From the NCBI GenBank assembly GCA_900549625.1, contig URPE01000004.1, positions 10,885-74,884 of the forward strand: DNA of 64,000 bases, in the 5' to 3' direction. Source of the DNA: an uncultured Mycoplasmatota bacterium. GTDB taxonomy: Bacteria; Bacillota_I; Bacilli_A; RF39; UBA660. Below the pieces are notes generated by a model. That model did not search any database. It saw only the letters and a list, made by a program, of their open reading frames with translations, and was not told where the DNA came from. Shown here one piece after another: positions 2,442 through 3,877 of the stretch (position 1 is its first letter; every line of letters begins with the position of its first letter). Position numbers and translations under genes: made by a program.

Positions 2442-2466
2442 TAAAGAAGAATAGGAGAGATAAATC

Positions 2467-3877
2467 ATGAAGTATAAATTCATTGGGGGGGGGGTTATTA
2501 AATAAGCATAACTCTCCAAAACTACAGAAATTTAAAGAAAATAATAGTAAAAGAAAAGTAATAGTAACAGCAATAATTATAAGTATATTGTTATTATCAG
2601 GTGTATATTTATATAGTTCTTTTGCTGTGTTTAGTGAAGAAAAAAACTTTAATGTAATAAATGGAACAGTAAGTGATCCAGGTGATATTTATTTTGCGTA
2701 TTACGTGGATGGTGAGATTACAAGAGATTTACCTGCACAGGGAAGTGGTTATACATTAGATATCGAAAAATCAAATTGTACTAATGGTGTGACAGTAAAT
2801 TGGGAAGAAAACACGTATTCGGCCATTATTACATACAGTAAATATAACGTCGAAGATTATACAAGGACGAGGTGTAATTTATATTTTAAAAAATTAGAGG
2901 TGTCCGCAATTGATTATATAAAAAAATTGTCAAAATATAATATTGAAACTCTTGCAAGGGACGAAGTAGGAGGAAATATAAGATATATTGGTGCTAATCC
3001 TGATAATTACGTAAATATAGATGGCGAATTATGGCGAATCATAGGTGTCATGAATAACATAGATGATGGTACAGGTAATAAAAGTGATAGAATTAAATTG
3101 ATTAAAAATGAAAGTATCGGTGCCTATTCGTGGGATAGTAGTGACAGCACTGTAAATAGTGGATTAGGTGTAAATGAATGGAGTCAGGCGGATTTAATGA
3201 AACTATTAAATCCTGGTTATGAAAGCGAAACAGTAGGTGGGTCATTATACTGGAATAGTGGATCAGGAAATTGTTATAATGGAAAAAACAATGCCACTAC
3301 AACTTGTGACTTTACAAAATCGGGTTTAAAGGAAAACTTGAAAGGCTTAATAGATGATGTGGTGTGGAATACTGGAAGCAATGGGTCAGATTTATTGTTT
3401 AACGAAATTGTGACTTCTAAATTTTATGAACTAGAAAGAAGTAGCAACAATGGTAAAATATGTTCAAGCGGAGACTATTGTAATGATGTTGTAACTAGGA
3501 CAACAACATGGAAAGGTAAGGTTGGCTTAATGTATCCATCAGATTATGGTTATGCCACAAGTGGTGGCAGTCCAACAGACAGAGCAACATGTTTAAACAC
3601 AAAATTAGGACATTGGGATAGTAGTTCGGTAAGAACTTGCTACTTGAATGACTGGCTATATAAAAATGGCTCTATTTGGCAAATAACTCCAGCTGCGAAC
3701 TCATCATATTATTATAAATATGGCAATGGAGTTTTTTGTATTGCTGAGACATCTGCTATGGGAGATGAATTTACAGCACTGGCATTTAATGTGTTTCCAG
3801 TTGTTTATATTTCTTCTTCAGCAAAAATCACATCTGGTATAGGTTCAAAAGAGTCGCCATTCATTTTAGGGCTGTGA
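2467..3877 (+). CDS. secreted/surface paralog family protein, interrupted by a +1 frame offset at the G10 tract (candidate phase-variable gene, OFF as sequenced)
   Basis: SD AGGAGA 2453-2458 and ATG 2467. The ATG frame stops at TAA 2503-2505. The long ORF (track 2483..3877) is in the next frame and has no own SD or ATG. N-terminal TM with SFAVFSEE motif. C-terminal domain is shared with 45462, 25725 and 26956. Confidence 0.65.
2485..2494 (+). repeat. poly(G)10 homopolymer tract inside the 5' coding region
   Basis: Direct count of 6 G at the end of block 2481-2490 plus 4 G at the start of 2491-2500. Consistent with the track translation MGGGLL. Confidence 0.9.

Follow-up and report, generated by a model that had tools for sequence, protein, structure and literature searches.

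A length-variable poly-G tract in the first codons of a surface-protein gene of uncultured gut Bacilli, a probable slipped-strand contingency locus

The 64,000-nt stretch of DNA analysed here, referred to as the window, comes from an uncultured Mycoplasmatota bacterium known from metagenome-assembled genomes (MAGs) alone (assembly GCA_900549625.1, contig URPE01000004.1, positions 10,885 to 74,884 of the forward strand). We describe a plus-strand locus at 2413–3877, in which a run of ten G residues stands between the start codon and the body of a gene for a predicted membrane-anchored surface protein. The locus begins with a candidate sigma-70-type promoter, TTGAAA-17 nt-TAAAAT (2413–2441), found by a consensus scan with 10 of 12 matches. 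A Shine-Dalgarno (SD) sequence, AGGAGA, can be read directly at 2453–2458, and an 8-nt spacer separates it from ATG 2467. This ATG opens a leader of six codons, ATG AAG TAT AAA TTC ATT, which runs into the G10 homopolymer at 2485–2494. Beyond the leader the same frame reads GGG GGG GGG GTT ATT AAA TAA. In the present G10 state the leader is therefore a mini open reading frame (mini-ORF; 2467–2505, plus strand) that encodes MKYKFIGGGVIK and stops at TAA 2503–2505, after 12 sense codons in total.

The main ORF (2483–3877, plus strand) lies in the frame next to that of ATG 2467, and comprises 464 codons as callable from TTG 2483, a codon partly within the tract and 24 nt downstream of the SD sequence. 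No in-frame ATG or GTG precedes the hydrophobic segment of the main ORF, TTG 2483 being the sole possible start there; after it the frame has no start-like codon until a TTG inside the hydrophobic segment. This layout had been proposed in an earlier note made from the sequence alone. Every coordinate given there for the SD sequence, the ATG, the tract and the stop proved exact, and the ORF and codon reading bear out its claim of a 464-codon ORF that can be started only at TTG 2483.

Directly behind the tract stands a motif, TTATTAAATAA (2495–2505, plus strand, read directly), which encodes LLNK in the frame of the main ORF and holds one TAA in each of the two other frames (2499–2501 and 2503–2505). 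Both of those frames should therefore terminate within four codons of the tract. The frame of ATG 2467 is closed at G10 and G11, and at G9 and G12 it runs on into the body of 460 codons; the gain or loss of one unit in the coding tract thus switches the reading frame, which is the placement expected of the switch in a contingency locus. The predicted junction peptide between leader and body in the fused product is MKYKFIGGGLLNK. The earlier prediction was that ATG 2467 would be joined to the ORF at G9 or G12, and both of the predicted fused N-termini, MKYKFIGGGLLNKH and MKYKFIGGGGLLNKH, exist as called proteins; P0151, P0154 and P0125 are examples in which this ATG opens the full protein at G9 or G12. 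Related loci have kept the elements around the tract. The promoter sequence of 2413–2441 is also conserved 5′ of paralogues L001, L003 and L004 and of loci L096–L109, and in all of the paralogues assigned to class A the sequence ATAGGAGAG is retained at the SD sequence, with TTATTAAATAA kept behind the tract.

The 464-amino-acid (aa) product has a short basic tail and a single predicted membrane helix, followed by a β-rich and Cys-rich region that is predicted to be extracellular. An AlphaFold model built with 29 homologues (mean predicted local distance difference test score, pLDDT, 74.5) shows a disordered basic N-terminus, a helix at residues 21–47 and then the β-rich/Cys-rich region; this helix and the large non-cytoplasmic region that follows it predict a surface location. 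Pfam and NCBIfam contained no family scoring above cut-off for the protein, and DUF4179 was set aside as its family, since the Pfam match was sub-threshold only. A sequence profile search of the PDB yielded nothing better than E = 0.25, and in a Foldseek search of the model against the PDB all matches had E > 1. C-type-lectin-like folds recurred among these matches, at insignificant scores, and were not used. The translation lacks an LPXTG-type C-terminus. The product is best described, from the model and the predicted helix, as a single-pass membrane-anchored surface protein of unassigned function.

More than 5,540 homologues were found in the protein collection, almost all of them unnamed and from gut metagenomes in ENA. 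A scan with one genome per species gave 574 related stretches, from which 79 distinct loci were kept and examined. All 79 came from MAGs of uncultured ‘Bacilli’, ‘Firmicutes’, Erysipelotrichaceae or ‘Tenericutes’, plus Clostridium sp. CAG:451, and their hosts were human (Hadza), rabbit, chicken (Candidatus Ventrenecus, which is unplaced in the NCBI taxonomy) and mouse guts. One MAG supplied at least 20 paralogues. The window itself contains a second member of the family, at 45462–46952, which has no tract.

A run of ten G residues is exceptional in this DNA, as the earlier note had argued from the low G+C content. The window has a G+C content of 28.4%, and contains 13 G runs of length 5, three of length 6, none of lengths 7 to 9, and two of length 10; the longest C run is at most 4. 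In 100 dinucleotide-preserving shuffles the mean number of G10 runs was 0.01, some 200-fold below the two observed, and none of the 100 shuffles gave two. Both the shuffles and the run-length counts agree that such runs are very unlikely by chance, and a G10 is of the size at which a repeat unexpected for its composition counts as hypermutable (about G8 or more). In the window and the 79 related loci the tracts are always G on the sense strand, and never C. The plus strand of the window contains 18.1% G and 10.2% C, and nearly all of the genes lie on it.

The second G10 run of the window, at 4186–4195, had been placed together with the first at surface-protein genes. Both runs were found, and the first is coding; the second lies 5′ of the next surface-protein gene, and not in a coding region. 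It is noncoding, 97 nt ahead of that gene, and is situated inside a promoter with two perfect hexamers (4170–4202, plus strand): TTGACA at 4170–4175, a 21-nt spacer holding the run, and TATAAT at 4197–4202.

Comparison of the coding tract with those of related genomes, which the earlier note had called for, was positive: tract lengths differ among nearly identical alleles. The orthologue of the window gene was found in 13 other assemblies, with the same two genes downstream, encoding an NPQTG protein and a sortase. Its tract is G9 and in frame in L096–L098, and G10 in L099–L108. Among themselves these orthologues differ by 0–2 substitutions in the 1,340 nt after the tract and by none in the 40 nt before it, and they differ from the window gene at 11 positions in 1,340 nt (99–100% identity over about 1.4 kb). 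The closest relative fetched was L109, from GCA_900772455.1.

Still more lengths occur in a sister paralogue, which has G9 in L080–L083, G10 in L084–L093, G11 in L095 and G12 in L094. The flanks of these alleles are identical and their coding sequences differ by 0–1 substitution in 1,340 nt. In L080–L082, L086 and L088–L093 the native upstream sequence has been replaced, up to the SD sequence, and the opposite strand there carries a gene of 399 aa whose HTH_38 domain suggests an IS30-like transposase. The sub-lineage with the inserted upstream sequence includes G9 as well as G10 alleles, and alleles of G10, G11 and G12 are found in the one whose upstream sequence is native. Different lengths have thus arisen within each upstream context, and the tract changes must be recurrent, several of them independent. 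Neighbouring tracts on one contig also vary independently: the first, second and third of three adjacent tracts are G10, G9 and G10 in L097, G10, G10 and G9 in L100, and G11, G10 and G10 in L104. With G9 and G10 alleles of the window gene, and G9 to G12 in its sister, the proposal of a phase-variable surface-protein locus is strongly supported.

The N-termini of called proteins record the same variation. Among the 120 best cluster representatives, 18 had the leader fused through GGG (for example MKQKFVGGGLLNK), 15 started at the tract (MGGGLLNK or MLGGGLLNK), 17 started within or after the membrane helix, and 70 had a full N-terminus without the motif. In 90%-identity cluster 6, about 40 contigs gave MGGGLLNKH (G10), eight gave MKYKFIGGGLLNKH (G9) and one gave MKYKFIGGGGLLNKH (G12), with about two others that include helix starts; in cluster 7 about nine were fused and 84 truncated. 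A metagenome pattern scan returned 25 matches, of which five were family loci and the rest mostly unrelated G7 runs from marine or soil samples. In the Joint Genome Institute (JGI) collection, an independent source, family loci had G8, G9 (three) and G10. The 79 representative loci contained 26 G runs of at least 7, coding and promoter tracts taken together, and these were G9 (two), G10 (22), G12 (one) and G13 (one).

The position of the tract is kept in species of various hosts, human and rabbit among them, and both frame states are observed. Some coding tracts follow a leader of 5–13 codons, and in a rabbit-gut subfamily they stand where the membrane helix ends. In the rabbit-gut MAG loci L065, L069, L070, L071 and L075 the G10 run ends the helix-coding region, out of frame, with stops in TATTTAATAAATAG directly after it. 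A paralogue represented by L135–L140 (MKLFKSVTHSGGGYNN) is G9 and in frame in six of the six loci fetched (12 contigs are on record). It is flanked by a T2SS-F/type IV pilus platform gene on one side and prepilin-like (N_methyl) genes on the other, a position that hints, from gene order, at a link of some family members to a type IV pilus or Com-like apparatus. Two variant arrangements were also seen. One relative (L141, 601–660) encodes Gly-Gly-Gly as GGA GGT GGA, with no homopolymer, and looks like a fixed-ON N-terminus. In P0175, P0184 and P0187 (DNA as in L047, 69–77) one leader has two fused frames, ATG...MKNSGKSRFSVNH at G9 and GTG...MENQDFRSTT at G10; if the GTG is used, two of the three tract-length classes could be ON in leaders of this type, with different N-termini.

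Tracts of the second, promoter type also recur outside the window. In the orthologous loci the promoter corresponding to 4170–4202 has a spacer of 19 nt where the tract is G10, and of 18 nt in L100 and L101, where it is G9. Two additional bases in the window and in L109 (TTTGA-G10 compared with TTT-G10) lengthen the spacer to 21 nt; the extra GA before the run could represent an interrupted G12. In other MAGs promoter tracts precede other family members and have the form TTGAC(A), 0–10 nt, a G run, 1–10 nt and (TGn)TATAAT, with leaders of 5–183 nt and, across the family, spacers of 19–22 nt at G10. The position of the second tract fits a promoter-spacer switch; the optimum spacer is 16–18 nt, compared with the 18–19 nt of the orthologues and the 21 nt of the window. 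A conserved RNA leader behind the promoter-type tracts was considered and rejected: the window's only Rfam matches, a T-box and two tRNAs, lie elsewhere, and the GGTGAT shared behind these tracts is the ribosome-binding site of leaders of 30–45 nt.

The anatomy of the locus, the conserved position of the tract and its length polymorphism among otherwise identical alleles are all direct observations. Since the tract mutates much faster than its flanks, and since both frame states circulate, the locus bears the signature of a slipped-strand contingency locus. We consider it highly probable that the G10 run is a hypermutable homopolymer which serves as a heritable, reversible on/off switch of a membrane-anchored surface protein. 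Transcription would probably start from the TTGAAA-17-TAAAAT promoter, and ribosomes would load at AGGAGA and ATG 2467. At G9 or G12 the leader of six codons would be read through three or four glycine codons into the body of 460 codons in a single frame, giving MKYKFIGGG(G)LLNKH..., and the ON product would be displayed in the order basic tail, membrane helix, extracellular domain. At G10 or G11 translation would meet a TAA at most four codons past the tract, leaving the body without a usable start of its own; the window copy would accordingly be an OFF allele. Slippage of the polymerase at replication would add or remove G residues much more often than ordinary mutation, so that a minority of cells would always be in the other state. 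With many paralogues, each having its own tract in the first codons or in a promoter spacer, individual cells would show different combinations of surface proteins. Candidate benefits are evasion of antibodies or phages, or niche-dependent adhesion.

Several points weigh against this interpretation. The tract differences between assemblies are differences in consensus between populations. In about 85–90% of the assemblies of the paralogue clusters examined, and in 10 of the 10 coding tracts in GTDB representative genomes, that consensus is OFF. A mostly OFF consensus at a freely switching locus calls for an extra assumption, namely a mutational bias to G10, a cost of expression, or both. There may be leaky expression in the OFF state, via TTG 2483, re-initiation or slippage at the RNA level. 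Finally, the location and function of the product are read from a predicted membrane helix and a model of medium confidence. Mutational pull to G10 together with a cost of expression would explain much of the dominance of the G10/OFF state. As a pure mutational attractor G10 is insufficient: the pilus-adjacent paralogue of L135–L140 is stably G9/ON in all contigs fetched, and L015 is OFF at G9, with G10 as the length that would turn it ON.

A consensus that is so uniformly OFF would be understandable were G10 itself the working state, and this is the strength of the best of the alternatives, in which the genomic G10 is kept and full-length protein is made through slippage of RNA polymerase or a +1 ribosomal shift on GGG G. 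Every cell would then have a fixed small fraction of full-length product, with no heritable switching. The prevalence of G10 noted above (22 of 26 runs), the out-of-frame state of the coding tracts at that length, and the 0-frame stop close behind the tract are all as such recoding would have them, and slippage at the RNA level was among the alternatives considered for the G tracts of Bifidobacterium breve (PMC9187656). A programmed slippage or frameshift site would have a fixed length and a single direction of shift. Here the DNA tract itself varies from G8 to G12 in alleles that are otherwise identical, some of which have the in-frame G9 or G12 as their genomic consensus. The correction needed is –1 for most paralogues and +1 for L015, so no ribosomal shift in a single fixed direction could suit every paralogue. 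G10 also occurs in promoter spacers, where recoding is meaningless. No stimulatory element was seen, and none was looked for. We therefore think recoding improbable as the main explanation; it may add leakiness on top of switching at the DNA level.

It is very unlikely that there is a single true length and that the G9–G12 calls are homopolymer errors of short reads, library PCR or de Bruijn assembly. Long G runs are error-prone on Illumina instruments, a ‘G's end’ read artefact has been described by Penno et al. (PMC9187656), and several of the contigs have only 2–15x coverage according to their names. Yet dozens of assemblies from varied projects and assemblers have the tract in the same position (the length variants among them, judging from the contig-name styles k141_, NODE_ and scaffold, were made by different ones), adjoining tracts differ independently within the single contigs L097, L100 and L104, and G9 was reproduced in all six of the L135–L140 loci. 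Errors of this kind could not, moreover, give rise to a conserved SD-ATG-leader whose frame joins that of the body at precisely the lengths seen as variants. Least likely of all is gene decay, a fixed inactivating frameshift in a redundant paralogue with the G run incidental: the window copy is out of frame and the family is highly redundant (the paralogue at 45462–46952; at least 20 in one MAG), but the 460 codons past the tract are fully open and 99–100% conserved between populations, the SD sequence, ATG and leader are conserved, in-frame alleles circulate, the disruption is always at the tract only, with no further stops or indels in the body among about 30 alleles examined, and a run of 10 G residues is not expected to persist by chance at 28% G+C.

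The closest precedent for the slipped-strand switch proposed here is in the pilus loci of B. breve UCC2003 (bbr_0113a/b and bbr_1889a/b), in which an upstream ORF of 8 or 65 codons is followed by a G11 or G10 tract, and the pilus body ORFs are out of frame, without initiation signals of their own, and OFF in the reference state (PMC9187656). Maximum-depth sequencing of replication slippage there gave, from G10, 93.4% G10, 6.5% G9 and 0.1% additions (PMC9187656); the excess of G9 over G11 variants in our comparisons fits this bias towards deletion. Both organisms are Gram-positive gut commensals, and in both a short upstream ORF with promoter, SD sequence and ATG leads through a G tract into the body of a surface protein, with a sortase locus in the same neighbourhood; the window locus has the same combination of mini-ORF, G tract and startless body. 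The differences are also clear. The B. breve genome has a high G+C content, so that G runs are less improbable than they are at 28% G+C. Its target is an LPXTG pilin, whereas the protein described here is predicted to be membrane-anchored, belongs to an unannotated family, and lacks an LPXTG-type C-terminus; pilin precursors of the B. breve type have a Sec signal and an LPXTG motif and stand first in a pilus/sortase cluster. Furthermore, the present lineage appears to have dozens of tract-bearing paralogues per genome, and has a second version of the switch, in the promoter spacer.

Three other groups of systems invite comparison. Campylobacter jejuni and Helicobacter, which are Gram-negative Campylobacterota, have AT-rich genomes with a few dozen G8–G13 runs, mostly G9–G10, in genes for surface structures that are turned ON and OFF by frame. 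Their targets are mostly glycosyltransferase, flagellar and capsule genes, and the tracts are usually found anywhere in the ORF. The window locus resembles them in its AT-rich background, in a poly-G tract near G9–G10, and in the frame switching of surface genes, and is unlike them in belonging to a Bacilli lineage and to one expanded protein family, with the tract fixed in the first codons or the promoter. Among the mycoplasmas, Mycoplasma hyorhinis Vlp has poly-A in the promoter spacer, and M. hominis Vaa has poly-A in the 5′ coding region. These small-genome relatives of the Bacilli share with the present family a low G+C content and a multigene set of surface proteins switched by a homopolymer in the spacer or early ORF. 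In the mycoplasmas the outcome is a surface that varies combinatorially, as is proposed here. Their repeats are, in contrast, poly-A or TA and their products lipoproteins, whereas here the repeat is poly-G and the protein has a membrane helix and no lipobox; the promoter spacers of 19–22 nt at the modal G10 also have no obvious ON length. In Neisseria porA and opc and Haemophilus hif, a homopolymer or dinucleotide repeat between the –35 and –10 elements sets the spacer length and with it the strength of the promoter. The tract at 4186–4195 parallels these in placement; their lengths bracket the optimum of 17 nt, unlike the spacer of 21 nt in the window and those of 18–19 nt in L096–L108.

The genes behind the second tract form an operon of their own. 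At 4293–5501 (plus strand) the translation gives a 402-aa secreted protein with a signal peptide, a C-terminal NPQTG, a hydrophobic segment and a basic tail; its match to a model of LPXTG-type C-termini was weak and below cut-off. It is followed at 5506–6372 (plus strand) by a class B sortase (Pfam Sortase, E = 8e-11; TIGR03064 srtB, 172 bits against a cut-off of 153.75), of which the 402-aa protein is, to judge from its sequence, a probable substrate. Both genes would be governed by the separate, promoter-located tract, and not by the coding tract.

A conserved intergenic module of about 90 nt occurs three times on the plus strand of the window (2347–2434, 4069–4155 and about 60277–60364), and the first two copies, of which the one at 2347–2434 lies upstream of the gene for the 464-aa protein, are 86% identical. 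Its sequence, ...CTAGAGGTTCTCTTT(C/T)TTTATTATATGAAATT...TTGAAATAAAAGAGTAAAT..., contains an ATGAAA...TTTCAT inverted repeat and a promoter-like TTGAAA, and a further copy is present in L003 at about 1732. The third copy in the window precedes an 803-aa ORF (60410–62821) that is not a member of the family. The gene at 38572–40077 encodes a 501-aa protein that combines a prepilin-type N-terminal methylation motif (MMKKGFTLVELL) with a Listeria-Bacteroides repeat, and is unusually large for a pilin-like protein. A T-box leader at 18812–18994 (95.5 bits, against a gathering score of 93) precedes an ORF at 19031–20347.

Slipped-strand switches are textbook features of pathogens of the genera Campylobacter, Neisseria, Haemophilus and Mycoplasma, and in gut commensals attention has mostly been on invertible promoters. 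The kind of mechanism proposed here is therefore well known; it is the lineage and the gene family in which poly-G switching seems to be undescribed. Full-text literature searches found B. breve and the classical pathogens, and no account in which this lineage or this protein family switches through poly-G; among commensals they turned up a single G-tract case, the pilus tracts of B. breve. Added interest comes from how large the family is, from the two positions that the tract can take, and from a systematic mis-annotation. Genes of the family are routinely mis-called, with starts at the TTG in the tract or within the membrane helix, and databases therefore contain many artificially truncated versions of these proteins. 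Public metagenomes already contain the material for measuring tract length at the population level.

A broader proposition, for which we see about as much in favour as against, is that the locus is one member of an undescribed and very large contingency system. Uncultured small-genome gut Bacilli of human, rabbit, chicken and mouse would then have, in each genome, dozens of paralogues from one unannotated surface-protein family, each with its own tract of about 10 G residues in the first codons or the promoter spacer, its length held near G10, and most of the paralogues silent in most cells. If this is true, a commensal lineage would have a variable coat in the style of Mycoplasma or Campylobacter. 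The switch appears to add a second layer of surface variation in widespread uncultured gut Bacilli, one that bears on escape from IgA and phages and on the persistence of strains.

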